A DNA stretch of 55,176 nucleotides from Candidatus Omnitrophota bacterium (GTDB lineage Bacteria; Omnitrophota; Gorgyraeia; Gygaellales; Profunditerraquicolaceae): the NCBI GenBank assembly GCA_041308845.1, contig JBFZAT010000044.1, positions 1 to 55,176 on the forward strand. Reading direction: 5' to 3'. Made by a program: the position numbers and the translations under genes. This document shows, one piece after another, positions 2,120 to 32,222 of this stretch (position 1 is the stretch's first letter; each line of letters starts with the position of its first letter). A model generated the notes under the pieces. It had not been told where the DNA came from and did no database searches. It saw only the letters and a list, made by a program, of their open reading frames with translations.

Positions 2120-2686
2120 TTAAAAAGGAGGATAGTCAGGCGGAATAGGAGGCGGTTCGGGTGTCGGTTCCGGTTCCGGTGTCGGTTCTGGTATCGGAGT
2201 TGGCTCTGGAGCGGGTTCCGGAATAGGCTCAGGTGTCGGTTCCGGTACCGGATCAGGCTCAGGCTCGATCGGACGGATTACTCTCCCGTTATTCCCATAT
2301 AATGCTTTGCGGGCAGGATCTTTATCTTGGCCATATGGGGCAAGCATAATGACTTTGGCCATATTTCCTTGGCCGCGGATGTCTTTAGGGTTATAAGCCC
2401 AACGGGAGTGTTCAGTTTTATTCAGTGAATTTTCTATTCTGTATAGTGCCTGTTGTTTCTCCCTTTCGTTTTGAACTTCCCGTTCAGTAAAGGTTTGTTT
2501 TCCAAGATGCCGCATATTCATTATAGAGTTTCTTTCTGGCTTATGTGAAATTTTCGGTTGTGATTGCATTTCTTCTTTTTTAGATTGCCCCTTGTTATCG
2601 GTATCTTTGGCTTCGGCGGCCAGATAGGTTCCGGATATAATCAAAGGGAGCATAAGTAAAATTAAGCATGTTTTTGATAATTTCAT
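2120..2686 (-). CDS. Secreted protein with C-terminal Pro/Glu/Thr repeat tail
   Basis: N-terminal signal peptide; C-terminus EPEPDPVPEPTPEPIPEPAPEPTPIPEPTPEPEPTPEPPPIPP; downstream of a c-di-GMP riboswitch. Confidence 0.8.
   Translation of the reverse strand: MKLSKTCLILLMLPLIISGTYLAAEAKDTDNKGQSKKEEMQSQPKISHKPERNSIMNMRHLGKQTFTEREVQNEREKQQALYRIENSLNKTEHSRWAYNPKDIRGQGNMAKVIMLAPYGQDKDPARKALYGNNGRVIRPIEPEPDPVPEPTPEPIPEPAPEPTPIPEPTPEPEPTPEPPPIPPDYPPF
2135..2268 (-). repeat. Low-complexity coding repeat (PEPT/PEPE units)
   Basis: Degenerate GGTTCCGGTGTC-type units on + strand encoding the Pro-Glu-Pro-Thr tail. Confidence 0.8.
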
Positions 2687-16308: not shown

Positions 16309-16425
16309 ATAAAGATAAGATTGTTTTAATACTTCAACTTGTTGGCAACGGAGTTTAATTAATAAAGTTGTTGTGTTGGAATTAAGTTCTGTTATAGTAA
16401 TCGTTAAGTAAATAAGAGGATAAGA

Positions 16426-16512
16426 GGTCTGGAGATGTTTAGCATATCCAGAGGGTATCGATGGTCGGGCCGCCATCTTGCATGTAGATGCAGGATGGCT
16501 TTTGATTTTTTT
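16426..16512 (+). ncRNA. Monovalent-cation riboswitch-like RNA (Na+ DUF1646 / nhaA-I type) with overlapping terminator, copy 1
   Basis: GGTCTGGAGATG..CATATCCAGA hairpin, GATGGTCGGGCCGCC core, GCCATCTTGCAT/ATGCAGGATGGC terminator + T tract; upstream of mscS; class assigned from memory of consensus. Confidence 0.7.
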
Positions 16513-16541
16513 GGTAGCCCAATTCAAAAAGGAAATAATTA

Positions 16542-17570
16542 ATGAACGATTATTTATTCTCTGGAGTTTTATTATTGAGTGCGCTAGCTGCCGGATGGTT
16601 TTTGTATGTTTCTATTGCCATTCTGCTTAAACGCGGATTACGTTTTATATATTTAAAAGGTTTTAAGCTTCATCTAGAGTATCTCAAGCCTCCTTTACGT
16701 CTATTGATTCCTGTCTTCTTTGTTTCCGCGGTGTTTTCTTCATTGCTCCTGCCGCCGAAGTCCGTTTTTTTATTTAGCCATTTGATCCACATAGTTTTAA
16801 TTGCTTCTTTCGGTTGGGCGGCGGTAAAGATTATCCATATTCTACGCGACTCAGGGTTAGAGCGTTATAATATTAACGTCAAAGACAATGCCCGGGCCCG
16901 CGGTATGCATACGCAGATACGCTTAATGGCCAACATAATTATTATCTTGGTTATTATTTTTACTGTCGCCCTTATTCTGATGACTTTTCCGGAAGTCAGG
17001 CAGGTCGGGTTGACTATTTTGGCTTCGGCTGGAATTATCGGTATAGTTATTGGGTTTGCTGCCCAAAAAACACTGGGTAATTTGATTGCTGGTATTCAGA
17101 TCGCGATCACTCAGCCGATTAGAATCGATGATGTTGTGATCGTGGAAAATGAATGGGGTAAAATTGAAGAGATAACACTTACTTACGTAGTAGTGCGGGT
17201 TTGGGATTTACGGCGTTTGATCGTGCCGATTGGTTATTTTCTGGAGAAACCTTTCCAGAACTGGACGCGTACTTCGGCAGATTTACTGGGGTCAGTGATG
17301 ATTTTTGCAGATTATACCGTACCGGTAAAAGAAATTCGTATTGAATTAACCAATATACTTAAAAACAGCCCGCTTTGGGATAGAAAAGTTAATGTATTAC
17401 AGCTTACAGATATGAATGAAAAGGCAATTCAGTTGCGGGCGTTGATGAGCGCAGAAGATGCTTCAATATTATGGGATTTACGTTGTGAAGTCAGAGAGAA
17501 ACTTTTGGAATTTTTACAGAAAAAGTTTCCGGAATGCCTGCCGCGAGTGCGCTTAGTCACGCAAGCCTAA
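16542..17570 (+). CDS. MscS family mechanosensitive channel
   Basis: ASAGIIGIVIGFAAQKTLGNLIAG, PIRIDDVV, GKIEEITLTYV. Confidence 0.92.
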   Translation: MNDYLFSGVLLLSALAAGWFLYVSIAILLKRGLRFIYLKGFKLHLEYLKPPLRLLIPVFFVSAVFSSLLLPPKSVFLFSHLIHIVLIASFGWAAVKIIHILRDSGLERYNINVKDNARARGMHTQIRLMANIIIILVIIFTVALILMTFPEVRQVGLTILASAGIIGIVIGFAAQKTLGNLIAGIQIAITQPIRIDDVVIVENEWGKIEEITLTYVVVRVWDLRRLIVPIGYFLEKPFQNWTRTSADLLGSVMIFADYTVPVKEIRIELTNILKNSPLWDRKVNVLQLTDMNEKAIQLRALMSAEDASILWDLRCEVREKLLEFLQKKFPECLPRVRLVTQA

Positions 17571-19423: not shown

Positions 19424-19789
19424 ATGAAGAACGATTCCGATGCTTCGTTGATCTATTCTACTGACCGGGGGGCGATTTGCCCGGATTGTTCTCAGGCAGT
19501 TAGTGAGTGTATTTGCCGTCAAATCAAAAGAAATGTTTTGCCTGAATCCGGAGGTAAAATAATCATACGCCATGAGACTGCCGGCAGAAGGAATAAAGGT
19601 ATGACCATAATTTCCGGTTTGCCTTTAAGTCAGGAAGATTTAGAGAGATTAGCTAAAAAATTAAAGAGTACCTTGGGTACCGGCGGCGCAGTAAAGGATT
19701 ATACTATTGAATTGCAAGGGCAGCAGTGTGAAAAAGTCGCGGTGGCATTACGCAGGTTAGGGTACATGATAACTGCGATTAAAATTTAA
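19424..19789 (+). CDS. yciH: SUI1/YciH translation initiation factor family
   Basis: LIYSTDRG, CPDC...CIC, GRRNKGMTIISG, LKSTLGTGGAVKD, IELQG. Confidence 0.88.
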   Translation: MKNDSDASLIYSTDRGAICPDCSQAVSECICRQIKRNVLPESGGKIIIRHETAGRRNKGMTIISGLPLSQEDLERLAKKLKSTLGTGGAVKDYTIELQGQQCEKVAVALRRLGYMITAIKI

Positions 19790-19842: not shown

Positions 19843-19916
19843 ATAAGGAAGAAATTTATTGCAATTGGGATTTTTTATGTTAGAGTAACAATGAATAAAT
19901 TAAAGTGATTTTAAGT

Positions 19917-19997
19917 GGTCTGGAGATGCGCAAGTATTTCTGGAGGATTTTGATGGTCGGGCCGCCATCTTGCATATAAATGCAGGGTGGTTTTTTT
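19917..19997 (+). ncRNA. Monovalent-cation riboswitch-like RNA with overlapping terminator, copy 2
   Basis: GGTCTGGAGATGC-GCAA-GTATTTCTGGA hairpin, GATGGTCGGGCCGCC core, GCCATCTTGCAT/ATGCAGGGTGGT terminator + T tract. Confidence 0.7.
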
Positions 19998-20032
19998 ATA
20001 CGTACTTATAATATATAGCAGGCTTAAATAAA

Positions 20033-20377
20033 ATGAAATTTATATTGACTTCATTGCTTGGGATATTAGTTATAATCCTAGGATTAAGCGTTTATAATTT
20101 GCAAAAAGAATTTTCTAACGCCAGAGAAAGTGCTATATTCTATAGCCAAAGAAGTGATGATCTGCAGAGTGAATTAATGCGGTTGTCTAAGGAATGCGCT
20201 CAAAAAGAAGAGTTTTTAGTGGAAATCGAAGAATCTATTACAAAGCTTGAAAATAAAATCCAACTAGAAAACTTAGAGCGTTCTATCCCTAAAAAAACCT
20301 GGGATGAAATTAAGCCGATTATTGACCGGTTAAGGGTGTTTCAGGAATCAAGGCAAGATAGTAAACTATCAAATTGA
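20033..20377 (+). CDS. Membrane-anchored coiled-coil hypothetical protein
   Basis: N-terminal TM then heptad-rich helix. Confidence 0.7.
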   Translation: MKFILTSLLGILVIILGLSVYNLQKEFSNARESAIFYSQRSDDLQSELMRLSKECAQKEEFLVEIEESITKLENKIQLENLERSIPKKTWDEIKPIIDRLRVFQESRQDSKLSN

Positions 20378-20387
20378 GGGAGGAATA

Positions 20388-20603
20388 ATGATGATAAAAA
20401 GGATAGTTATTATTAGTTTTACCTTGGTCAATGTGATGCTCTGGTTTTTGAGCGGTTGCACCTTTATGATTAAAGGCGAACATCAGTCAAAATATTATGG
20501 AGTAAATGAACAGCGCGATAATGAATTTTTGGATCAGATCCTGCAAAGGCAGGAAGAGATATATCAAGCCAGGAAAATTTCGCTAGGCAATAAAAATCCA
20601 TGA
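20388..20603 (+). CDS. Small lipoprotein
   Basis: GGAGG RBS; FLSGC lipobox. Confidence 0.7.
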   Translation: MMIKRIVIISFTLVNVMLWFLSGCTFMIKGEHQSKYYGVNEQRDNEFLDQILQRQEEIYQARKISLGNKNP

Positions 20604-21259
20604 GACTAATTGCGGCCAAATTAAAATCAGTTTTACTGCTGGCGTTTATTTTGACTGCTATTTTTTACCTAGCTAAAAATCAGTTAGAGCATTATCTGTT
20701 GAATAAAATTATTGCGCGGTTAAGCGCGGATTCCCGGGTGGCTGAGGTGGTAGTTACTCAGGTTAAGCCCGATGTCAAAACAAAAAAGATTTATACAACG
20801 ATTAAGTTTTTAGAATACGATGTTCAGCTTAACCCTCTGGAACCAAAATATTTCACTTTTTCCGGGAATGTCATTCAGTTTCAGTCCATGGTAGTAAGAT
20901 TCGATGATTTTTACGTCAAAAAAGGGCATCCTTTAAAAGGTAAAAGCGCCTATTTATTTATGAAAGTTTTTAGGTTGACTGAGCAGGGGGTAGAATCTTT
21001 TGATATTGTTAAAGTAAGTGAAATTCCTTCCGGTTATGATTTGCCTAGTGTCCGGAATAATTTTGAAAAGAAAATCTGGCAGAAGTTCTGGGAATACGCG
21101 CTTAATCCCGCGAAAGCAGCCAAATTGGGAATTAAGAACGTTCAGATTGAAGCCCCGGGAACCAAGTTTATTCCCGGAATTATTTATACGATAAAAATTG
21201 AGCATGATGGGGGTTTACGCATCGATACCCAGCCGATCGCTCCGATTTTAAAAAATTGA
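20600..21259 (+). CDS. Membrane-anchored hypothetical protein
   Basis: N-terminal TM, beta-rich body, overlaps neighbours by 4 bp. Confidence 0.75.
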   Translation: MRLIAAKLKSVLLLAFILTAIFYLAKNQLEHYLLNKIIARLSADSRVAEVVVTQVKPDVKTKKIYTTIKFLEYDVQLNPLEPKYFTFSGNVIQFQSMVVRFDDFYVKKGHPLKGKSAYLFMKVFRLTEQGVESFDIVKVSEIPSGYDLPSVRNNFEKKIWQKFWEYALNPAKAAKLGIKNVQIEAPGTKFIPGIIYTIKIEHDGGLRIDTQPIAPILKN

Positions 21260-21819
21260 AAAAAAATAGTTTCTACTTTCGAGTCGTTCTTTTATTTTTT
21301 ACGGTTTTGATTTCCGGATGCCTAAGGATATCTATGGGGCCTGGCAGTGATAATTTTCCTGGGCTGGAGACTGTGCAAAAAACAGTTGGGCCAAAATGCA
21401 GCACTTCTGATTGGCGTTATATTACTTTGCATCATAGTGCAACCCTGGAAGGCAACGCGGAATGTTTTGACCGGAATCATCTGGCCCGCAATTTGGGCGG
21501 TCTTTTTTATCATTTTGTAATTGGTAACGGCACGCTTTCTGGAAATGGAGAAATCGAAACCGGGTGGCGTTGGCAAAAACAGGAAGCGGCTAACCGTCTG
21601 GCGGACATTCAAATTTGTTTGGTGGGTAATTTCAGCCAGGAAACAGTAGGCCCTGAACAACTGGAGGCTTTGATAAAGTTAATCAAGGTTTTGCGTCAAC
21701 AGTATAATGTGCCGCTAGGGAATATAAGACGGCATAAAGATATCGCCGGCCGGGCCACTGAATGCCCAGGTACTAATTTTCCGTTTGAGCAGTTGTTAGC
21801 CGCATTAAATAAGGTTTAA
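21256..21819 (+). CDS. N-acetylmuramoyl-L-alanine amidase (Amidase_2/PGRP-like) lipoprotein
   Basis: LISGC lipobox; ITLHHS, YHFVIGNG, ICLVGNF, RRHKDI, TECPG. Confidence 0.88.
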   Translation: MKKNSFYFRVVLLFFTVLISGCLRISMGPGSDNFPGLETVQKTVGPKCSTSDWRYITLHHSATLEGNAECFDRNHLARNLGGLFYHFVIGNGTLSGNGEIETGWRWQKQEAANRLADIQICLVGNFSQETVGPEQLEALIKLIKVLRQQYNVPLGNIRRHKDIAGRATECPGTNFPFEQLLAALNKV

Positions 21820-21875
21820 TCAGGTTTTGATAATCTGCGCAGAGTTATAGTCCGAGCGCTGAAGCGAGGTGACGA

Positions 21876-22406
21876 ATTAAAAAGATTATTCTTTTTTTAA
21901 TCATCGCTCTTTTTTTAGTTCCTTTTTTTTCGCATTCTTTTAAGTATTTTAAACAAGCGTTTGATCAGAGGAAAAAACAAATCGAACAGAAAAAAACTCC
22001 GGAGATAAAAGATTTTTCCGGAACAGAGACGGCTGAAGGGTCTTTAGGGGGTGCAGAGGAAGATCCCGTCTTTACCGAAAGCATGGAGGCTCCGTTTTGG
22101 CCGGATAATGAAAAAACTCCGCCAGCATTTATTCAGCCTGAAGTAAAAATTACGCAACAGCCAGAAAATAAAAAACCGGATCTTCAGGATAAAGTGGCGA
22201 GTTATCCTTTTAAATCTAAAACTCAGATGAGAAAAATTCAGACGGCTTTGAAAAATGCCGGTTTTTATAAAGGAAAGATTGATGGTAAAACCGGACCGCA
22301 AACAAAAAGCGCGATAAAGGCGTTCCAGAAATCAAAAAAATTAAAACCGGATGGATTAGTCGGTAAAAAAACCTGGGTAGAATTGAGCAAATATTTAAAA
22401 AATTAA
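21876..22406 (+). CDS. Peptidoglycan-binding domain protein, probable ATT start (176 aa)
   Basis: Frame open from ATT 21876 (GAGGTGA RBS just upstream) through a TM leader into ORF 22083; IQTALKNAGFYKGKIDGKTG PG-binding domain. Confidence 0.75.
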   Translation: MKKIILFLIIALFLVPFFSHSFKYFKQAFDQRKKQIEQKKTPEIKDFSGTETAEGSLGGAEEDPVFTESMEAPFWPDNEKTPPAFIQPEVKITQQPENKKPDLQDKVASYPFKSKTQMRKIQTALKNAGFYKGKIDGKTGPQTKSAIKAFQKSKKLKPDGLVGKKTWVELSKYLKN

Positions 22407-22419
22407 AAAGGAGGTAATA

Positions 22420-22806
22420 ATGTTCTTAAAATCATTAACTTTAATATCGGTGCTGATGTTGCTTGTTGGTTGCGCTAGCAGCCCGAAGAAAACGGAAGTA
22501 CAATTACAGCCGTCTACTAGCTACCAGCAGGTAATCTCTGCCCAGGGGTATGAAGAGAGCTGGCCGGCAGTAGACTATGAGAAACCGGTTAAAAAAGCTT
22601 ATTCCGGAGTAGCTGTGCATTTGAGCCTCAAGCAGATTCAGCGGGCATTAAAAAACGCTGGATTTTATCAGGGGGTAATTGATGGTAGAATCGGAGCCAG
22701 GACCAAAGAAGCTATTGTCAAGTTCCAGAAAGCCAATGGCCTTAAGCCTGACGGTATTGTAGGCAAAAGGACTACTGCAGCTTTAAATAAATACCTTACA
22801 CTTTAA
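22420..22806 (+). CDS. Peptidoglycan-binding lipoprotein
   Basis: LLVGC lipobox; IQRALKNAGFYQGVIDGRIG...LKPDGIVG. Confidence 0.88.
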   Translation: MFLKSLTLISVLMLLVGCASSPKKTEVQLQPSTSYQQVISAQGYEESWPAVDYEKPVKKAYSGVAVHLSLKQIQRALKNAGFYQGVIDGRIGARTKEAIVKFQKANGLKPDGIVGKRTTAALNKYLTL

Positions 22807-22809
22807 AGG

Positions 22810-23736
22810 ATGAAAATTAATAAAAGTTTATTTTTAGTCGTCTGTGTTTTGTTTCTGTGTGCCGGGATATATTCTGAGCGGCGATATTTTACGCATCTGC
22901 AAAAGGCTAAACAGGAGCGCCGGCTAGGTGAGGCCAGAAGAACTGCCTGGCGAGGGTTGCAAGAAAGCATCAAAAGTCAGATCAGCCAGTTTAACGGGCA
23001 GGTGGGAATATTGGTTAAGGATTTAGAAACCGGCTGGGAACTTTCTTATGAGAAGAACAGGTTATTCCCTTCAGCCAGCCTGGCTAAGGTTCCATTGATG
23101 GCAGCAGCGTTTCTGGCCGCAGAGCAAGGCCGGATAAAACTAGGGAATAATCTTAAATTAAAGCCAGCGGATAAACTTGCTGGTTCAGGGATATTAAAAA
23201 ATATGCCCGTGGATTCTACTTTTAGCCTGGAACGGTTGATCGGTTTAATGATTTATGAAAGCGATAATACCGCCACGAATATGATTACCAATCTAGTTGG
23301 CGTTGATTATCTTAATCATACTTTTAAGGCTTTCGGGTTGAAGAATACCGAGCTTTCGCGTAAGATAGCCGACTATCGCTTGCGCAATAAGGGGATTGAA
23401 AATTATACTACCGCTGAAGACATGGCTTTACTGTTGGAAAAGATCTACCGGCGTACACTGGGGAATAAAGTTGTTTCAGATCGTTGCATCAACACTTTAA
23501 AATTAACCCGTTTAAATGACCGCCTGCCGAAATATTTACCGGCAGAGTTAACAGTAGCGCATAAAACCGGTCTTGAACGGGATGTTTGTCATGATGCCGG
23601 GATAGTGTTTAGCCGCAATGGCGATTTTATCATTGTAGTTCTTACTGGGAATGTTAATTCTAGCGGCCTAAGTTCTAAAGAATTTATCGCCCGGATTGCT
23701 TGGTTGGTGAATAACTATTTTGAGCAGTTACGATAA
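22810..23736 (+). CDS. Serine hydrolase, class A beta-lactamase-like fold (Beta-lactamase2/PBP)
   Basis: SASLAK (SxxK), ESDN (SDN), HKTG; N-terminal anchor. Confidence 0.85.
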   Translation: MKINKSLFLVVCVLFLCAGIYSERRYFTHLQKAKQERRLGEARRTAWRGLQESIKSQISQFNGQVGILVKDLETGWELSYEKNRLFPSASLAKVPLMAAAFLAAEQGRIKLGNNLKLKPADKLAGSGILKNMPVDSTFSLERLIGLMIYESDNTATNMITNLVGVDYLNHTFKAFGLKNTELSRKIADYRLRNKGIENYTTAEDMALLLEKIYRRTLGNKVVSDRCINTLKLTRLNDRLPKYLPAELTVAHKTGLERDVCHDAGIVFSRNGDFIIVVLTGNVNSSGLSSKEFIARIAWLVNNYFEQLR

Positions 23737-23808
23737 AATAGTTGCTTAGTGCTGGAAGTTGCCTATAATAAGAAGTAAAATTAATATTTATCAGAGAAAG
23801 GGGGGGAT

Positions 23809-24153
23809 ATGAGAAGGAATGTTTTATTAGCATTGGCATTAGTTGTTGTTTTTTCTTCAAGATTGGTTTTAGCCGCAGATAAAGGATTAGCTTTAGGGGG
23901 ATTGGAAAAAGACGCCAAAAAAGCGAAGATTGAGACAAAAAAATCTACCCAGCAGGCTGAACAGGATCTGGAGAAAGCTAAAAAACAGGCTGAGCTTGAA
24001 GCTAAGAAAAAGCAGAAAGAGGCTGAGCTGAAGCAAAAGAAAGCCCAGCAGGAAGCAGACAAGAAAAAGAAGGAATTGGAGAAAAAAAAGAAGCAAGCTG
24101 AAAAGGAAGCCCAAGCCAGGAAGAAATCGTTGCAGAAAGAATGGGGAAAATAA
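23809..24153 (+). CDS. Secreted Lys/Glu/Gln/Ala-rich helical protein
   Basis: Signal peptide then repeated KKQAExEAxKK-type units. Confidence 0.75.
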   Translation: MRRNVLLALALVVVFSSRLVLAADKGLALGGLEKDAKKAKIETKKSTQQAEQDLEKAKKQAELEAKKKQKEAELKQKKAQQEADKKKKELEKKKKQAEKEAQARKKSLQKEWGK

Positions 24154-24183
24154 AATTAATTGATTCTTGAAGTTTGTTTGCCT

Positions 24184-24214
24184 AAAAGGGCTGGATATTA
24201 ATCCAGCCCTTTTT
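24184..24214 (+). terminator. Intrinsic terminator (possibly bidirectional)
   Basis: AAAAGGGCTGGAT / ATCCAGCCCTTTTT. Confidence 0.85.
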
Positions 24215-26224: not shown

Positions 26225-28459
26225 ATGAGAAGAGTCCTTTTATTTATTCTACCAATACTCATTATAGTGGCTTTAGCTTTTACGCTTTTTGGTTTCTTCC
26301 AGGTGCGTTTTGAAGAAGAGAAACTGATTGATGATCTGAAACGTAAAGCCAAAAGCATTGCTGAAAGTATGGAGTTATCGGTTCGCCATGTCCTTTTAGC
26401 CGATGATTTAAAAAGCGCTGATTATCTGGCTGAGAAATTCGAAAGCCGGCAAAGGCTGCAAGGCTGCGCAATCTATGATAAAGACGGCAATATAATAGCC
26501 TTGACCAGAAGGTTAAGCGATTGGAGGCAGAAAAACAGGCCTTATATTGCCGATATCATGAAAAATAAAACTCCCCGGGGAGAATTGGAGTTATTTAAAG
26601 ATTACCAGGTTTATAGTTATATCCTTCCAATTGTTAATGACGACGGGCAGTTTTTGGGTATGGTGGAGGTGATTCATGACACTTCTTATGTTTTCGCCAG
26701 GCTCACCGAGCTTTGGAAGCATATCAGTTCAACGTTGGTTATCCTGGTTGTAGTAATTTTTCTTATTGCTATTGTTCTGCACCGGCAGATTTTTGCCCTT
26801 CCCATACAACGCCTAACCGATTGGTTTAAGTATTTTCAAAGGGGAGAAATCGATAAAGCCCATCCGATTAAAGAAAAAGGAGACTTAGGTAAGCTGGCCA
26901 GTGAAGTAGAGCAGGTGGCTTTAAGTATTAGGGTGGCGCGGCGCTCGATATCAGATGAAGCACATGTCCGTATGCAGAAAGAAGAAATTTGGACTGAAGC
27001 TAAACTTAAGGACCTGATCCATGCAAAACTGGGAGATAATTCTTTTTTTGTGGTTTCCAACCGGGAACCATTTATGCATGTTTTTGATGAAGAATTAGGT
27101 AAAGCGGTATGTATCCGGCCGGCCAGTGGGGTGGTTACGGCTATTCATCCGATACTTTCTGCCTGCGGTGGCACGTGGGTTGCTCACGGTAGCGGTAATT
27201 CTGATAAAAAATTTGTTAACTCTAAAGATAAGCTGGGCGTGCCTTGCGAAGATAACCGTTATATTCTTAAAAGAGTCTGGTTAGATAAGCAGCAGGAGCA
27301 GGGATATTATTACGGTTTTTCGAATGAAGGATTATGGCCGCTTTGTCATAATACGCATACCCGACCGGTTTTTAAGGAATTTGATTGGAGGATGTATAAA
27401 GAGGTCAACCAGAAGTTTGCCGACAGTGTTTTAGAAGAATTGCCGGCCAGCAGCCCGTTTATCTTTGTGCAAGATTATCATTTTACACTTTTGCCCAAGA
27501 TGATAAAAGACAAGCGCCCGGATGCCAAAGTAGCTTTATTCTGGCATATTCCTTGGCCGACGCCGGAAGCTTTTATGATTTGTCCTTATCAGGGCGAGAT
27601 TCTAGAGGGGATGCTGGGAAGCGATCTGATCGGTTTTCATGTTCAGAATCATTGTAATAATTTTCTTGATACCGCTAATCGCCTGCTGGAGTCCCGCGTA
27701 GATACCGAAAAATTTAGTATTGTGCGTGCGGGTAAAGAGACTTTTATTAGGGCTTTCCCGATCAGTATTAATCCGCAGATCAACGACAATTCATTTAAGC
27801 GAGATCCGGTCAGGCAGATCGAGAAGTTAAAACAGGAGTTTGAGCTGGAAAATAAGATCGTGGCAGTCGGAGTAGACCGCATTGATTACACTAAAGGCAT
27901 CGTGGAAAGAATTTTAGCTATCGACAGGTTCCTGGATAAATATCCGGAGTACAAAAAGAAATTTGTTTTTATCCAGCTGGCTGCCCCCAGCCGTACGCAT
28001 ATCAAGCGCTACCATGATTTAATCGGAGAAATTGATGAGCGGGTAGAGAAAATTAACTGGAAGCATGTGGAGGCAGGTTGGAAGCCGATTGTCTACCTGA
28101 AGAAACATTTTTCTCAAGAGGATATCCATCCTTATTATCAGCTGGCTGATATTTGTATCGTTAGCTCTTTACATGATGGAATGAATCTTGTGGCTAAAGA
28201 ATATGTTGCCGAGAAAGATGATTTATCCGGATGCTTGATCTTAAGCCAGTTCACCGGAGCCGCCCGTGAACTTACCGATGCGCTCCTGGTTAATCCCTAT
28301 TCAATCGAGGAGTTTGCCGATAGCATAAAATTGGCTATTGAGATGCCCAAAGAAGAGAAGCGCAAGCGTATGGAGAGTATGCGTAAGATAATTACTAAGA
28401 ACAATATTTACCGTTGGGCAGCTAATATTATCACGGAATTAGTTGCTTTAAAAGTTTAA
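26225..28459 (+). CDS. otsA: Trehalose-6-phosphate synthase (GT20) fused to N-terminal membrane sensor/HAMP-like module
   Basis: VVSNREPF, YYGFSNEGLWP, QDYH, HIPWP, GVDRIDYTKG, DGMNLVAKEY; ~270-aa N-terminal TM-periplasmic-TM-HAMP region. Confidence 0.9.
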   Translation: MRRVLLFILPILIIVALAFTLFGFFQVRFEEEKLIDDLKRKAKSIAESMELSVRHVLLADDLKSADYLAEKFESRQRLQGCAIYDKDGNIIALTRRLSDWRQKNRPYIADIMKNKTPRGELELFKDYQVYSYILPIVNDDGQFLGMVEVIHDTSYVFARLTELWKHISSTLVILVVVIFLIAIVLHRQIFALPIQRLTDWFKYFQRGEIDKAHPIKEKGDLGKLASEVEQVALSIRVARRSISDEAHVRMQKEEIWTEAKLKDLIHAKLGDNSFFVVSNREPFMHVFDEELGKAVCIRPASGVVTAIHPILSACGGTWVAHGSGNSDKKFVNSKDKLGVPCEDNRYILKRVWLDKQQEQGYYYGFSNEGLWPLCHNTHTRPVFKEFDWRMYKEVNQKFADSVLEELPASSPFIFVQDYHFTLLPKMIKDKRPDAKVALFWHIPWPTPEAFMICPYQGEILEGMLGSDLIGFHVQNHCNNFLDTANRLLESRVDTEKFSIVRAGKETFIRAFPISINPQINDNSFKRDPVRQIEKLKQEFELENKIVAVGVDRIDYTKGIVERILAIDRFLDKYPEYKKKFVFIQLAAPSRTHIKRYHDLIGEIDERVEKINWKHVEAGWKPIVYLKKHFSQEDIHPYYQLADICIVSSLHDGMNLVAKEYVAEKDDLSGCLILSQFTGAARELTDALLVNPYSIEEFADSIKLAIEMPKEEKRKRMESMRKIITKNNIYRWAANIITELVALKV

Positions 28460-28473
28460 TTTGCGAGGTAGAA

Positions 28474-29529
28474 ATGGATGAGGATTTATTTTTAAAATTG
28501 GCTAGCTGGGCGCGCATGTTTACCCCGGTAATTATTTTTTTCGTTGTTTTCTTTCTAGGGTTGATGGTTAAAAAAATAATTTTTAGCCGTTTCTTGCTTT
28601 GGGCTAAAAAAACTTCCACCCAGCTGGATGATTTATTTATCCAGGTGCTTAAAGGGCCGTCTTTAGTTTTATGCTTGATTTTAGCTTTATATTTTGCGGT
28701 GCAATTTTCCAAGCTACCAGAAAATATTATATTAGTTATAAATAAAAGTATTCTTATCCTCGGGATCATTTCGGTGGTTTTGGCATTAACTAATCTGTTA
28801 TCTGAGCTGATCAAGATTTATTCTTTCCGGGGTGATTGTCCTCTTCCGATCAACAGTCTTACCCATAACATCGTCAGGATTTTTGTTTTTTCCATCGGCA
28901 TCCTGATTATTTTGAACAGTTTGGGTATTTCTATTACTCCGATATTAGCGACTTTAGGGGTGGGGGGTTTAGCAGTAGCGTTAGCCTTGCAGGACACTCT
29001 GACTAATCTTTTTGCCGGTTTTCATATTACGGTGGCTAAGCAGATCAAGGTCGGAGATTATATTAAGCTGGAGTCAGGAGAAGAGGGTTATGTAGTAGAT
29101 ATTAACTGGCGTTCGACGATGATCAAAATGCTGCCGAACAATCTGGTGCTTATCCCGAATGATAAATTAAATAAAGCCATCGTTACAAACTATTATGCGC
29201 CGGATAAAGAAATGGCGGTTTTAGTGAACTTAGGGGTGCATTATAAAAGCGATTTGGAAAAAGTAGAGCGGGTTACCTGTGCAGTGGCTAAATCTGTGAT
29301 GACCGAGGTCAGCGGTGGGGTAGAACATTTTGAGCCATTTATTCGCTATAATGCTTTTGCGGATTCCAGTATTAATTTCACTGTAATTTTAAGAGCCAGA
29401 GAATTTGTTGATCAATATTTGATCAAGCACGAGTTTATTAAAAGATTGCATAAGAGGTATCTTCAAGAAGGGATAAATATTCCTTATCCGATCAGGGCGA
29501 TAAATTATGAACAGGAGAAGGCAGATTAA
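28474..29529 (+). CDS. MscS family mechanosensitive channel
   Basis: LGVGGLAVALALQDTLTNLFAG, IKVGDYI, GYVVDINWRST. Confidence 0.92.
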   Translation: MDEDLFLKLASWARMFTPVIIFFVVFFLGLMVKKIIFSRFLLWAKKTSTQLDDLFIQVLKGPSLVLCLILALYFAVQFSKLPENIILVINKSILILGIISVVLALTNLLSELIKIYSFRGDCPLPINSLTHNIVRIFVFSIGILIILNSLGISITPILATLGVGGLAVALALQDTLTNLFAGFHITVAKQIKVGDYIKLESGEEGYVVDINWRSTMIKMLPNNLVLIPNDKLNKAIVTNYYAPDKEMAVLVNLGVHYKSDLEKVERVTCAVAKSVMTEVSGGVEHFEPFIRYNAFADSSINFTVILRAREFVDQYLIKHEFIKRLHKRYLQEGINIPYPIRAINYEQEKAD

Positions 29530-29537
29530 GGCTAAAA

Positions 29538-30347
29538 ATGCGTTACTTCTTTACGGACGCGGAAAAAATAAAAAAGATTCTGGAGAATAACTATTTATTT
29601 TTGTTCTTAGATTGCGATGGCACGCTGGCGCCGATTGTTAATCTTCCCCATCAGGCGGTGATTGCCAAAGAAACAAAAAGAATACTTAATCTTTTATCTA
29701 AAAGTAAAAACTGCCGGGTGGCAATCATTAGCGGAAGATCGCTGGGGGATTTGAAGAAGAAGGTTAACCTGAGAAATATCATTTATTCAGGCAACCATGG
29801 TTTACAGATTCAGGGACCTAAGTTAAAATACGAACTGCCACTGCCGCTAGATTATAGAAAAGCATTGCCGCAGATTAAGGCTCAGCTTAAAAAAAAGCTT
29901 AGCGGTATCAAAGGCATACTGCTGGAGGATAAAAAGTTTTCTTTGGCTTTGCATTTTAGGCTGGCGGATAAGCATCGGCTGCCGCTAGTCAAAACCGTTT
30001 TCCATGAGATTACTGCGGTTTATTTAGTCAGAGATCAGATTAAAGTTAAATCCGGCAAACAGGTTTTGGAAGTTAGGCCTCCGCTACCCTGGGATAAAGG
30101 CAAGGCGGTGCTGTGGCTATTAGCTAGACAGGAAATTTTCCTAAAAGATAAAAAATTTTTTCCGATTTATATCGGAGATGACCTTACCGATGAGGATGCT
30201 TTTGCGGCGTTGAAAAATAAAGGTTTGACTGTTTTAGTAGGGTTGCCTGGATCTTCTCAGGCGCAATATTATATTAAAGATGTCCAGGAGGTAAAGGATT
30301 GCTTAAAGTTTATTCTTAATATCACAACCAGTAAAAATTATGCCTGA
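29538..30347 (+). CDS. otsB: Trehalose-6-phosphate phosphatase (HAD)
   Basis: FLDCDGTL, ISGR, GNHG, WDKGKAV, GDDLTDEDAF. Confidence 0.92.
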   Translation: MRYFFTDAEKIKKILENNYLFLFLDCDGTLAPIVNLPHQAVIAKETKRILNLLSKSKNCRVAIISGRSLGDLKKKVNLRNIIYSGNHGLQIQGPKLKYELPLPLDYRKALPQIKAQLKKKLSGIKGILLEDKKFSLALHFRLADKHRLPLVKTVFHEITAVYLVRDQIKVKSGKQVLEVRPPLPWDKGKAVLWLLARQEIFLKDKKFFPIYIGDDLTDEDAFAALKNKGLTVLVGLPGSSQAQYYIKDVQEVKDCLKFILNITTSKNYA

Positions 30348-31014
30348 GATTATAAAAGCTAAAGAACCGTTTAAATTTTATACCCGCTTGCATTTGACTG
30401 AATTAACCGGGTTAAGGGCAACTACTTTAAGCCAGCTTCTGGCCTTAATTAAAAAGGTGCCCGGTTCCTGTATCTATCATCATACGCATAGATTTCTGCA
30501 GCAGCATCAATTTTTTTCTCCTGAACCGCCGAATGATTTCGCTTATTGGGTGACTGAAATATTAGGAGAAATCGAGCTTGGCGAACGCCTGGCAAGTATA
30601 GATATAATAGAATTTTCCAGAATTCATGATCTGCGGGAAAAAATTATTGCGGTGATTGAAGGTTATTTGAAAGAGGAGCGTTTCGCCCAACTTAAGTTTG
30701 CCCGGGAAGGGGAGGAGTTCCATTTCATAAAATCGGTAAGTTTTGTCGTTCCGACAAACTATATTGTGGATAACCTGCTAGATTTTGTTGAAATAATGAA
30801 AAAGATTACTTTTGACTCAATTTATTTCCATATTTTCGAAGCGCGTCTGCGCTTGGAAAAGAAAGATAATGATTTTTCTAACTGGATAGATCATTCGCTA
30901 GGAGACCAGGCGCTGGCCGATGAGATTAGCGCGTTGGATCCTTACACCCGGACCCTGGATGATTTACGCGCGGCGATTATTAATATTATCGAGAAAAAAC
31001 TAACACAACGATGA
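30340..31014 (+). CDS. DUF5752 family protein
   Basis: IYHHTH, NDFAYWV..LGERLA repeated as NDFSNWI..ALADEI; usual neighbour of TreT. Confidence 0.8.
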   Translation: MPEIIKAKEPFKFYTRLHLTELTGLRATTLSQLLALIKKVPGSCIYHHTHRFLQQHQFFSPEPPNDFAYWVTEILGEIELGERLASIDIIEFSRIHDLREKIIAVIEGYLKEERFAQLKFAREGEEFHFIKSVSFVVPTNYIVDNLLDFVEIMKKITFDSIYFHIFEARLRLEKKDNDFSNWIDHSLGDQALADEISALDPYTRTLDDLRAAIINIIEKKLTQR

Positions 31015-32222
31015 ATAAACTGGAAGAATATATACCGATTGTAGGGCAATCTGTGATTGACGATTTAAAGTTGATCGCTACGCGCTTAGAAAATAAAACT
31101 ATCCAGCATATCAATTCGACTTCGGTAGGAGGCGGAGTGGCGGAGATTCTTACCCGGATGGTGCCCTTGCTTCAGGAATTAGGGGTGAATACACGCTGGG
31201 ATTTAATTAAAGGCGGCGAACAATTCTTCGAAGTGACCAAAAAATTCCATAATGCTTTGCATGGCCACCCGGAAGAGATAGCTAAAAAAGATTTTGATAC
31301 TTTTTTGGAAACCAGCCAACGCAATATCGATGAGCTGAATACAGACAATGATATTGTTTTTGTCCATGACCCTCAGCCGATTGCGCTAATTAATAAAAAA
31401 CAGGATAATAAATGGCTTTGGCGTTGTCATGTGGATGTTTCTAATCCTAATGCTAAGGTTTGGGATTTTCTTATGGAGTATATTGTGCGTTACGATGCAG
31501 CCGTATTTTCTGCTCCGAGTTTTTCGCCTAGATTGCCGATTCGCCAATTTTTGATTTCTCCTTCTATTGATCCTCTAAGCGATAAAAATAGGGAGTTGCC
31601 GCAGGAGGTAATCGAAAAGGTATTGTTAAAATACCAGATTCCCCAGGATAAACCGATTATTACTCAGATATCGCGTTTCGATCGCCTTAAGGATCCTTTA
31701 GGTGTAATTGAAGCTTATAAAGAAGTTAAAAAACATATTAACTGTCGGCTGGTTTTAGCCGGAGGTGGGGCTGCTGATGATCCGGAAGGGGCGATGATTT
31801 TTACTCAAGCAATGGAAAAGGCCAAGAATGATAAAGACATCCATATTTTACTGCTGGCGCAGAATGATATTGAGATTAACGCTTTGCAGAGAGCTTCTAC
31901 GGTAATTATACAAAAATCTATCCGGGAAGGTTTTGGTTTAACCGTTGCGGAGGCTTTATGGAAGGCTAAGCCGGTAGTTGCTTCTAACGTGGGGGGGATA
32001 CCCTTACAGGTTAAACATAAATATTCCGGCCTGCTATGTCATTCTGTTTCAGGAGCGGCTTTTGCGATTAAGCAGCTTTTGAATAGCCCGGCCTATGCGC
32101 TGCGCTTAGGGGAAAACGGGCGGGAACATATCCGGAACAATTTTTTGATTACCCGGCATCTAAAGAGCTACCTGCTCTTATTTCATTCTTTGTATCACCG
32201 AGAGGATGTTGTTTATTTATAG
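31011..32222 (+). CDS. treT: Trehalose synthase TreT-like GT4 glycosyltransferase
   Basis: HINSTSVGGGVAEIL, VHDPQP, WRCHVD, SRFDRLKDP, EGFGLTVAEALWK. Confidence 0.85.
   Translation: MNKLEEYIPIVGQSVIDDLKLIATRLENKTIQHINSTSVGGGVAEILTRMVPLLQELGVNTRWDLIKGGEQFFEVTKKFHNALHGHPEEIAKKDFDTFLETSQRNIDELNTDNDIVFVHDPQPIALINKKQDNKWLWRCHVDVSNPNAKVWDFLMEYIVRYDAAVFSAPSFSPRLPIRQFLISPSIDPLSDKNRELPQEVIEKVLLKYQIPQDKPIITQISRFDRLKDPLGVIEAYKEVKKHINCRLVLAGGGAADDPEGAMIFTQAMEKAKNDKDIHILLLAQNDIEINALQRASTVIIQKSIREGFGLTVAEALWKAKPVVASNVGGIPLQVKHKYSGLLCHSVSGAAFAIKQLLNSPAYALRLGENGREHIRNNFLITRHLKSYLLLFHSLYHREDVVYL

Follow-up and report, generated by a model that had tools for sequence, protein, structure and literature searches.

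In a window of 55,176 nucleotides (the whole stretch analysed; Candidatus Omnitrophota bacterium, GCA_041308845.1, contig JBFZAT010000044.1), an RNA element lies directly upstream of a block of eight cell-envelope and peptidoglycan genes, here termed O1 to O8, and it is almost certainly a genuine ON switch of the nhaA-I riboswitch family. Our preferred reading, which we hold to be reasonably probable, is that it is a transcriptional nhaA-I ON riboswitch of the terminator-bearing Na+-II subtype and that it controls the envelope/peptidoglycan operon. The host, a metagenome-assembled genome of the Omnitrophota, falls outside the Alpha- to Deltaproteobacteria from which nhaA-I RNAs have been reported (PMC9646797). 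Coordinates of all features are collected in the table below.

Family membership was assessed by running Rfam cmscan over the whole window at gathering thresholds. The nhaA-I model (RF03057, gathering score 37 bits) matched the element with 41.7 bits (E = 5.9e-05) and matched a second time, with 40.0 bits, at a site 5' of mscS, so that two riboswitches lie 3.5 kb apart. A first-pass annotation, made by a model from the letters alone, had described a Na+/Li+-type riboswitch-like element and proposed scans against both nhaA-I and DUF1646; the nhaA-I half of that description is borne out by both copies, whereas membership in DUF1646 (the Na+-I family) was rejected, its covariance model having no match on 19850-20040 even at E up to 10. 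A permissive Rfam scan of the same interval returned no other credible RNA. A subtype model (R1), for which both copies in the window, six from Omnitrophota and the published Desulfobulbus propionicus RNA were used, scored 75.8 bits on the envelope copy and 73.5 bits on the mscS copy, and its scan of the window revealed no copy beyond these two.

The conserved architecture of the family is readily recognised in the aptamer, which in alignment to RF03057 shows the GG(G)U 5' end, the AGG junction and a CGGGCC hexaloop closed by a U.G pair. The GG(G)U, AGG and P2/hexaloop columns are invariant in alignment A5, which was itself selected on the P2 sequence, and the isolated aptamer folds as two hairpins, P1 and P2. 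As the first-pass annotation had observed, the two window copies are nearly identical at their core, sharing P2 and its loop (GAUGGU-CGGGCC-GCCAUC) and the 5' arm of P1. Their P1 3' arms differ by one-sided wobble-to-Watson-Crick changes, and the mscS copy has one G-A mismatch besides; the wobble changes reported earlier are thus present, but to call them compensatory was an overstatement for this pair. Among 108 homologues aligned to R1, compensatory changes were found in all eight P1 pairs and 96.6% of P1 cells were paired. The covariation test was confined to P1 because most homologues had been retrieved with a P2 pattern. In slid controls, with 3' partners moved by one to three columns, 31-63% of all cells paired, versus 98.0% for the actual structure.

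The aptamer stands in sense orientation in a 5' leader, 63 nt 5' of O1, with a predicted promoter about 30 nt further upstream (TTGCAA-N16-TG-T-TAGAGT; transcription start predicted near 19893). This promoter was assigned from consensus and conservation: a TTGCA-N16/17-TGnTAnAnT arrangement also stands 5' of the mscS copy and, in four related loci (L001, L003, L004 and L204), 5' of the orthologous cassettes. The unit of evolution is therefore the promoter-aptamer-terminator cassette. On its 3' side the aptamer runs into an intrinsic terminator, a 12-bp hairpin with a T-run, whose 5' arm is the P2 3' arm (GCCAUC), a design shared by both window copies. The terminator hairpin has a predicted energy of -17.2 kcal/mol (-14.6 kcal/mol by an independent scan), and in the minimum free energy fold of the 90-nt leader, which takes in the 30 nt after the aptamer, it replaces P2. 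Because the terminator shares the P2 3' arm and displaces P2, the geometry is that of an ON switch, as had been proposed at first pass; action by anti-termination follows from this sequence arrangement and from the validated homologue of D. propionicus. The element is a genuine riboswitch and probably a functional one.

The subtype question turns on a small body of published work. RNAs of the nhaA-I family have been validated as Li+ sensors (Li+-I; White et al. 2022, Sci Rep, PMC9646797), most of which are speculated to act on the ribosome-binding site or ribosome access. The same study describes rare nhaA-I variants with intrinsic terminators, located 5' of hypothetical genes in Deltaproteobacteria only and showing gene associations not seen with Li+-I, which were named Na+-II. 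The D. propionicus Na+-II RNA binds Na+ with a dissociation constant (KD) of about 1.4 mM and gives Na+-dependent read-through in vitro, its mutants M2 (GG of GGAGG) and M3 (CG of the loop) are inactive, and K+ failed to trigger the published variants. Position 54 was the only specificity determinant tested there: a C54U mutant (M4) of the D. propionicus RNA was no longer selective for Na+ and showed responses to Li+, Na+ and NH4+ (PMC9646797). In the literature available to us, we found no later work on Na+-II or on nhaA-I structure or reclassification.

Positions in the window were mapped onto the D. propionicus RNA with the published construct and template sequences. The P1 base of the window RNAs is of the D. 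propionicus type (GGU-C...G-AGG) and departs from the Li+-I consensus GGGUGC...GCAGG; it reads UGGUCU...GGAGG with C-G as first pair, rather than the G-C and C-G first pairs of Li+-I. Residues equivalent to those altered in M2 and M3 are intact (GG at 19945-19946, CG at 19958-19959), and the nhaA-I-type aptamer is coupled, as in Na+-II, to an intrinsic terminator competing with P2. Downstream stand envelope and peptidoglycan genes instead of the nhaA or cation-exporter genes associated with Li+-I. These features suggest a specificity other than that of the typical Li+-I class. The earlier proposal of a ligand variant therefore survives insofar as the element is atypical for Li+-I, but it most likely belongs to the already named Na+-II type and does not represent a new ligand.

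We surveyed the distribution of the subtype by scanning metagenomes for the exact P2 core GATGGTCGGGCCGCCATCT, which gave at least 120 loci. Of the 108 aptamers aligned to R1, 102 had the D. propionicus-type P1 base and six the Li+-I type. An overlapping terminator was present in 84 of the 102 but in none of the six, and median locus guanine-cytosine (GC) content was 0.43 versus 0.605. Among the matches listed, the first gene 3' of a copy encoded Cache-OtsA (at least 24 cases), MscS (at least eight), HflK (at least six), OmpR-type regulators or kinases (at least four), or an SNF symporter and similar small upstream open reading frames (ORFs; at least five); these tallies are indicative only, since the survey was limited to one exact P2 sequence and first genes came from automatic ORF calls. 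Other first genes encoded Na+/H+ exchangers, OAD-beta, an Rnf/Nqr subunit, DUF1646, TRAP DctQ, CitMHS/NhaD-like and P-II-like proteins. The regulon of the subtype, as read from these gene neighbourhoods, is sodium and osmotic in character, and it is mainly for this reason, and for its likeness to the regulon of Na+-I riboswitches (PMC9337991), that we favour Na+ as the physiological ligand, with moderate confidence. As a separate observation, two Na+-II-like aptamers per locus were seen in L157, L188, L114, L127, L130, L139, L149, L087 and L198. In L157 (334-482) and L188 (820-975) they stand in tandem about 130 nt apart, each with its own terminator, resembling tandem arrangements mentioned in PMC9646797, and in L139, L149 and L198 they are kilobases apart.

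The eight genes 3' of the riboswitch are tightly packed, with overlaps or intergenic distances of at most 72 nt, and all of their products are exported or membrane-anchored. The gene content given by the first-pass annotation was accurate: three exported proteins without a family (O1, O2 and O3, for which searches of Pfam, NCBIfam and PDB sequences gave nothing above noise), an Amidase_2 protein, two PG_binding_1 proteins and a Beta-lactamase2/PBP-A-like protein. The last of these, O7, taken to be a PBP-A-like hydrolase of the DD-peptidase type, carries SxxK, SDN and KTG motifs and has the cyanobacterial Tll2115 (2j7v) as its best PDB match; the NCBIfam class A model scores it at 112.9, short of the cutoff of 200. 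In a scan for hairpins followed by T-runs, the only strong plus-strand terminators between 19800 and 24330 were that of the riboswitch and the one closing the cluster (24188-24209), and a 10/12 promoter match lies 3' of the latter, ahead of the next gene. Small gaps, the lack of a strong internal terminator and the strong terminator after O8 make a single transcript from about 19893 to about 24214 the simplest reading, and continuity through O7/O8 is likely on this evidence. Read-through into the amidase and peptidoglycan genes is in this way predicted from how closely the genes are spaced and from the lack of terminators inside the cluster.

We then considered how far the link between riboswitch and envelope genes recurs (Omnitrophota and metagenome loci). 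A phylum-wide pairing of riboswitch and O3, expected at first, was rejected, and the link is clade-specific: it recurs in at least three relatives and is absent from most Omnitrophota. In L004 a riboswitch stands directly 5' of an O1 homologue, the same arrangement as in metagenome locus L147, and L204 has the order riboswitch, O1, AsmA, O2, O3, LysM-amidase. Of four further O3 relatives examined, L204 alone has a riboswitch 5' of O1; in L201/L202 and L205 no copy lies within 5 kb, and the L203 locus breaks off inside the upstream histidine kinase. In L001, L005 and L088 the cassette heads a same-strand array of OmpR regulator, kinase and receiver, then peptidoglycan-binding, O1, O2 and O3 genes. 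It heads hflKC in L003 and L008, the same-strand array of L003 including O1-O3 and peptidoglycan genes; in L008 a cassette also heads an mscS-like gene followed by O3, and in L020 one lies 5' of Cache-otsA. The order O1-(AsmA)-O2-O3-amidase-PG_binding-PBP-A is kept in L003 and L203 and is conserved in the clade with or without a riboswitch, O2 being kept adjoining O3 in relatives; parts of the cluster occur in the same order in L204 (where the locus stops right behind the amidase) and L205 (with no O1 or O2 called).

Elsewhere, the gene 3' of a riboswitch encodes a protein with a pair of PG_binding_1 domains in L143, and in L156 it is dapB, after which come an O7-like hydrolase gene and mscS. 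Peptidoglycan-related genes were found 3' of about 2-4 of ~120 environmental copies, among the matches listed. The context described at first pass as unusual is accordingly rare but not new, because Weinberg et al. 2017 noted rare peptidoglycan-related associations of the nhaA-I motif; mscS, which follows the second copy, is likewise a listed rare association. A conserved secreted protein of ~273 aa (no Pfam family; motif GERVFENECASK...WNEGEDF) also recurs beside PG_binding genes 3' of riboswitches, in L143 (998-1819), L001 (3927-4754) and L203 (7963-8781).

Several observations count against a Na+-II switch acting on the whole operon. Both window copies have U at the equivalent of C54 (19957 and 16465), the nucleotide of Li+-I RNAs and not that of the D. 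propionicus Na+-II RNA; so do all 108 environmental and Omnitrophota homologues, most of them selected by a pattern containing U, and the eight copies not selected by the pattern are no exception. The survey that supplies the sodium regulon is indicative, no canonical start codon opens O5, promoters of their own could drive O8 and perhaps O5, and a riboswitch lies within 6 kb of O3 in only 6 of 80 Omnitrophota species loci, all of them close relatives. The U in place of C makes a relaxed Na+/Li+ selectivity possible, and with it two other views of the ligand. That the element is an ordinary Li+-selective (Li+-I) riboswitch, with the operon as a response to lithium toxicity, would agree with the match to the nhaA-I model and with the U found in most Li+-I RNAs where the D. 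propionicus RNA has C. We nevertheless consider it unlikely, given a P1 base that departs from the Li+-I consensus, a terminator platform as opposed to the ribosome access speculated for most Li+-I RNAs, the absence of an nhaA gene, the Na+-pump, Na+-symporter and osmoprotection genes that follow copies of the subtype, and the gene associations of terminator-bearing variants that are not seen with Li+-I (PMC9646797). A low-selectivity sensor of monovalent cations or ionic strength, answering Na+, Li+ and NH4+ alike as the C54U mutant does and thereby reporting general cation load, deserves somewhat more credit, as the natural sequence amounts to the D. propionicus type with U54, the very combination in M4, and some copies have a P-II-like gene 3' of them. 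It too seems improbable, however: the regulon is centred on Na+, the P2 stem and linker, which also differ in sequence from those of D. propionicus, could restore selectivity, K+ is inactive on the published variants, and Na+ would in any case dominate such a sensor in cells.

The reach of the switch can be questioned in a similar way, since it might control only the first genes (O1-O3, perhaps O4) and leave the peptidoglycan-binding and PBP-like genes to independent transcription. A gap of 56 nt and a non-canonical start precede O5, weak hairpins with T-runs occur at 21868-21908 and inside O6 and O7, the gene set 3' of O3 varies among relatives, and O8 is preceded by a weak promoter-like sequence (TTGCTT-N16-TATAAT, 23742-23769) whose -10 is perfect. 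Set against these are the lack of a strong terminator across 19998-24188, the spacing of O5-O6-O7 by 3-13 nt, and the cluster order kept in L003 and L203 and partly in L204 and L205, and we regard such a restricted reach as a minority prospect. As to O5 itself, its frame is open from 21873, with a first ATG at 22083 and no ATG, GTG or TTG before it; an ATT at 21876 sits 5 nt 3' of a GAGGTG Shine-Dalgarno sequence, and the transmembrane segment encoded before 22083 has a homologous counterpart at the N-terminus of the L001 orthologue. From this, the start is probably the rare ATT, although the missing canonical start is possibly an assembly error. Very remote, finally, is the idea that the element is a decayed copy whose only remaining role is constitutive termination or attenuation of the pyk-DUF502-SUI1 genes 5' of it. 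No terminator was seen between SUI1 (which ends at 19789) and the riboswitch, and L003 does contain a decayed copy (2400-2470, 5' of an mscS-like gene preceding O1) that has kept P2 and the terminator and lost P1; in the window, by contrast, the conserved aptamer positions, P1 pairing and the element's own conserved promoter are all intact.

Under the preferred reading of a Na+-II-type switch over the operon, the dedicated promoter would start the leader near 19893, and by default the 12-bp terminator would form at the expense of P2 and stop transcription. A rising cytoplasmic concentration of a monovalent cation, most likely Na+ and possibly with some cross-response to Li+ or NH4+, would stabilise the aptamer (P1, GGAGG junction, CGGGCC-looped P2) and so block the terminator, whereupon RNA polymerase would read into O1-O8 and end at the closing terminator. 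The salt-triggered remodelling of the cell wall proposed at first pass would be the physiological outcome. The nearby mscS riboswitch and trehalose cluster suggest that the operon may be one arm of a salt or osmotic-stress response that adjusts wall and envelope.

Table. Features of the nhaA-I-family riboswitch, its downstream envelope/peptidoglycan genes and related loci (window coordinates).
Feature	Position	Strand	Details
Paralogous cassette	16371..17570	+	Predicted promoter 16371-16398; aptamer 16425-16478 (U at 16465); terminator 16472-16499; mscS 16542-17570
Promoter of riboswitch cassette (predicted)	19859..19886	+	-35 TTGCAA 19859-19864; extended -10 TG-T-TAGAGT 19878-19886
nhaA-I-family aptamer	19916..19970	+	RF03057 41.7 bits; model R1 75.8 bits; P1 covariation
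Aptamer P1	19920-19927 paired with 19936-19943	+	
Aptamer GGAGG junction, conserved	19942-19946	+	
Aptamer P2	19952-19957 paired with 19964-19969	+	CGGGCC loop 19958-19963
Expression platform, intrinsic terminator	19964..19997	+	12-bp stem 19964-19991; T7 tract 19991-19997 (terminator scan)
O1, 114 aa, N-terminal transmembrane helix and coiled coil	20033..20377	+	
O2, 71 aa, small lipoprotein	20388..20603	+	Lipobox LSGC
O3, 219 aa, transmembrane helix and beta-rich domain	20600..21259	+	
O4, 187 aa, lipoprotein N-acetylmuramoyl-L-alanine amidase (Amidase_2)	21256..21819	+	Pfam PF01510 6.1e-16; PDB 6srt amidase 2.2e-17
O5, transmembrane-anchored PG_binding_1 protein	21876..22406	+	Pfam PF01471; probable ATT start
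O6, 128 aa, lipoprotein with PG_binding_1 domain	22420..22806	+	Pfam PF01471 1.4e-18
O7, 308 aa, secreted serine hydrolase akin to class A beta-lactamases/PBP-A	22810..23736	+	Pfam Beta-lactamase2 6e-60
O8, 114 aa, secreted Lys/Glu-rich coiled-coil protein	23809..24153	+	
Closing intrinsic terminator	24188..24214	+	9-bp GC-rich stem, then T5; -15.9 kcal/mol
Trehalose/osmoprotection cluster	26225-32222		Cache-OtsA (26225), second MscS (28474), OtsB, DUF5752, TreT

With the mscS cassette on one side and the trehalose cluster on the other, the neighbourhood is an osmoadaptation island. The OtsA encoded at 26225 bears an N-terminal Cache sensor domain; RF03057 and R1 scans found no riboswitch 5' of this otsA, whereas its L020 orthologue has one. 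Upstream, no terminator was detected between the ferritin gene (16308) and 16425, as also between SUI1 and 19916, and the riboswitch terminators may additionally end the transcripts of these upstream genes. The third and last RNA found by the whole-window Rfam scan, an unrelated c-di-GMP-I-GGC riboswitch (RF03167, 65 bits versus a gathering score of 59), lies at 2775-2853 on the minus strand, where it precedes an ORF (2686..2120, minus strand) whose 188-aa product is secreted and has a tail rich in Pro (PEPxP-like).

O3, the best conserved point of reference in these comparisons, has at least 2165 homologues at 48-75% identity, every named one from Omnitrophota. It occurs in 80 GTDB species loci, nearly all titled Omnitrophota, with some under such other or generic labels as 'uncultured Planctomycetales' or 'uncultured bacterium'; these homologues place the window in the Omnitrophota. 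An AlphaFold2 model from 80 sequences reached a predicted local distance difference test (pLDDT) score of 86.2 and shows a helix at the N-terminus and, after it, a beta-rich domain that includes two helices; 21 close sequences had yielded a poor model (pLDDT 53.6). Comparison of the O3 model with the PDB by Foldseek gave no match (best E 0.045, template modelling score 0.16), and a profile search of PDB sequences gave no relative. As modelled, O3 is a confidently predicted orphan envelope fold. Its gene often adjoins those for OmpR-type regulators, PG_binding proteins, MscS or AsmA.

These results can be joined in a wider proposal, which we put forward tentatively and rate, taken as a whole, at somewhat short of even. 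The terminator subtype with GGUC...GGAGG may be a widespread environmental Na+ sensor and not a rare deltaproteobacterial oddity, present in Omnitrophota and other low-GC uncultured lineages, with its selectivity set by the P1 base instead of nucleotide 54; within a single clade of Omnitrophota, a mobile promoter-aptamer-terminator cassette may wire a multi-operon salt regulon of mscS, Cache-otsA, hflKC, a two-component system and the O3-centred peptidoglycan/envelope cluster. The locus offers a testable case of a cation riboswitch placed over cell-wall hydrolases and peptidoglycan-binding proteins and not over transporters, and would connect ionic stress with remodelling of the envelope in a phylum with few cultured members. 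Natural U54 versions of the Na+-II architecture could settle the basis of Na+ versus Li+ recognition, and O1-O3 are candidate salt-stress envelope factors. Of interest are the taxon, the cell-wall output and the coexistence of a natural U54 with a regulon of the Na+ type; none is at odds with current understanding.

Among known systems, the closest is the Na+-II RNA of D. propionicus (PMC9646797), with which the window RNA shares the two-hairpin nhaA-I aptamer and its P1-base signature GGU-C...G-AGG, the CGGGCC loop and GG junction, a terminator overlapping the P2 3' arm in an ON switch, and downstream genes other than nhaA. It differs in having U at position 54 where D. propionicus has C, in its P2 stem (GAUGGU versus GUUAGC), in its Omnitrophota host (published variants being from Deltaproteobacteria only) and in its target, an eight-gene envelope/peptidoglycan operon as opposed to a single hypothetical gene. 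Li+-I RNAs (RF03057) have in common with it the family model, matched above gathering, the U.G-closed P2 hexaloop and the GGGU and AGG elements; however, the window P1 base is not GGGUGC...GCAGG, the terminator is not a platform of the ribosome-binding-site type, the host is low-GC and non-proteobacterial, there is no nhaA gene, and the regulon of the subtype appears directed to Na+ and osmotic functions and not to Li+ export. The Na+-I riboswitch (DUF1646 motif; White et al. 2022, Nat Chem Biol, PMC9337991) is a separate family, although in it too P2 competes with a terminator in an ON switch, and its regulon is similar, covering Na+ transporters, OAD, DUF1646, osmoprotectant synthesis and dapB. 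The c-di-AMP (ydaO) riboswitches (see also PMC9337991) are unrelated in fold and ligand, but they offer the parallel of a leader RNA that controls both osmotic-stress and wall-remodelling genes, including amidases and peptidoglycan hydrolases.

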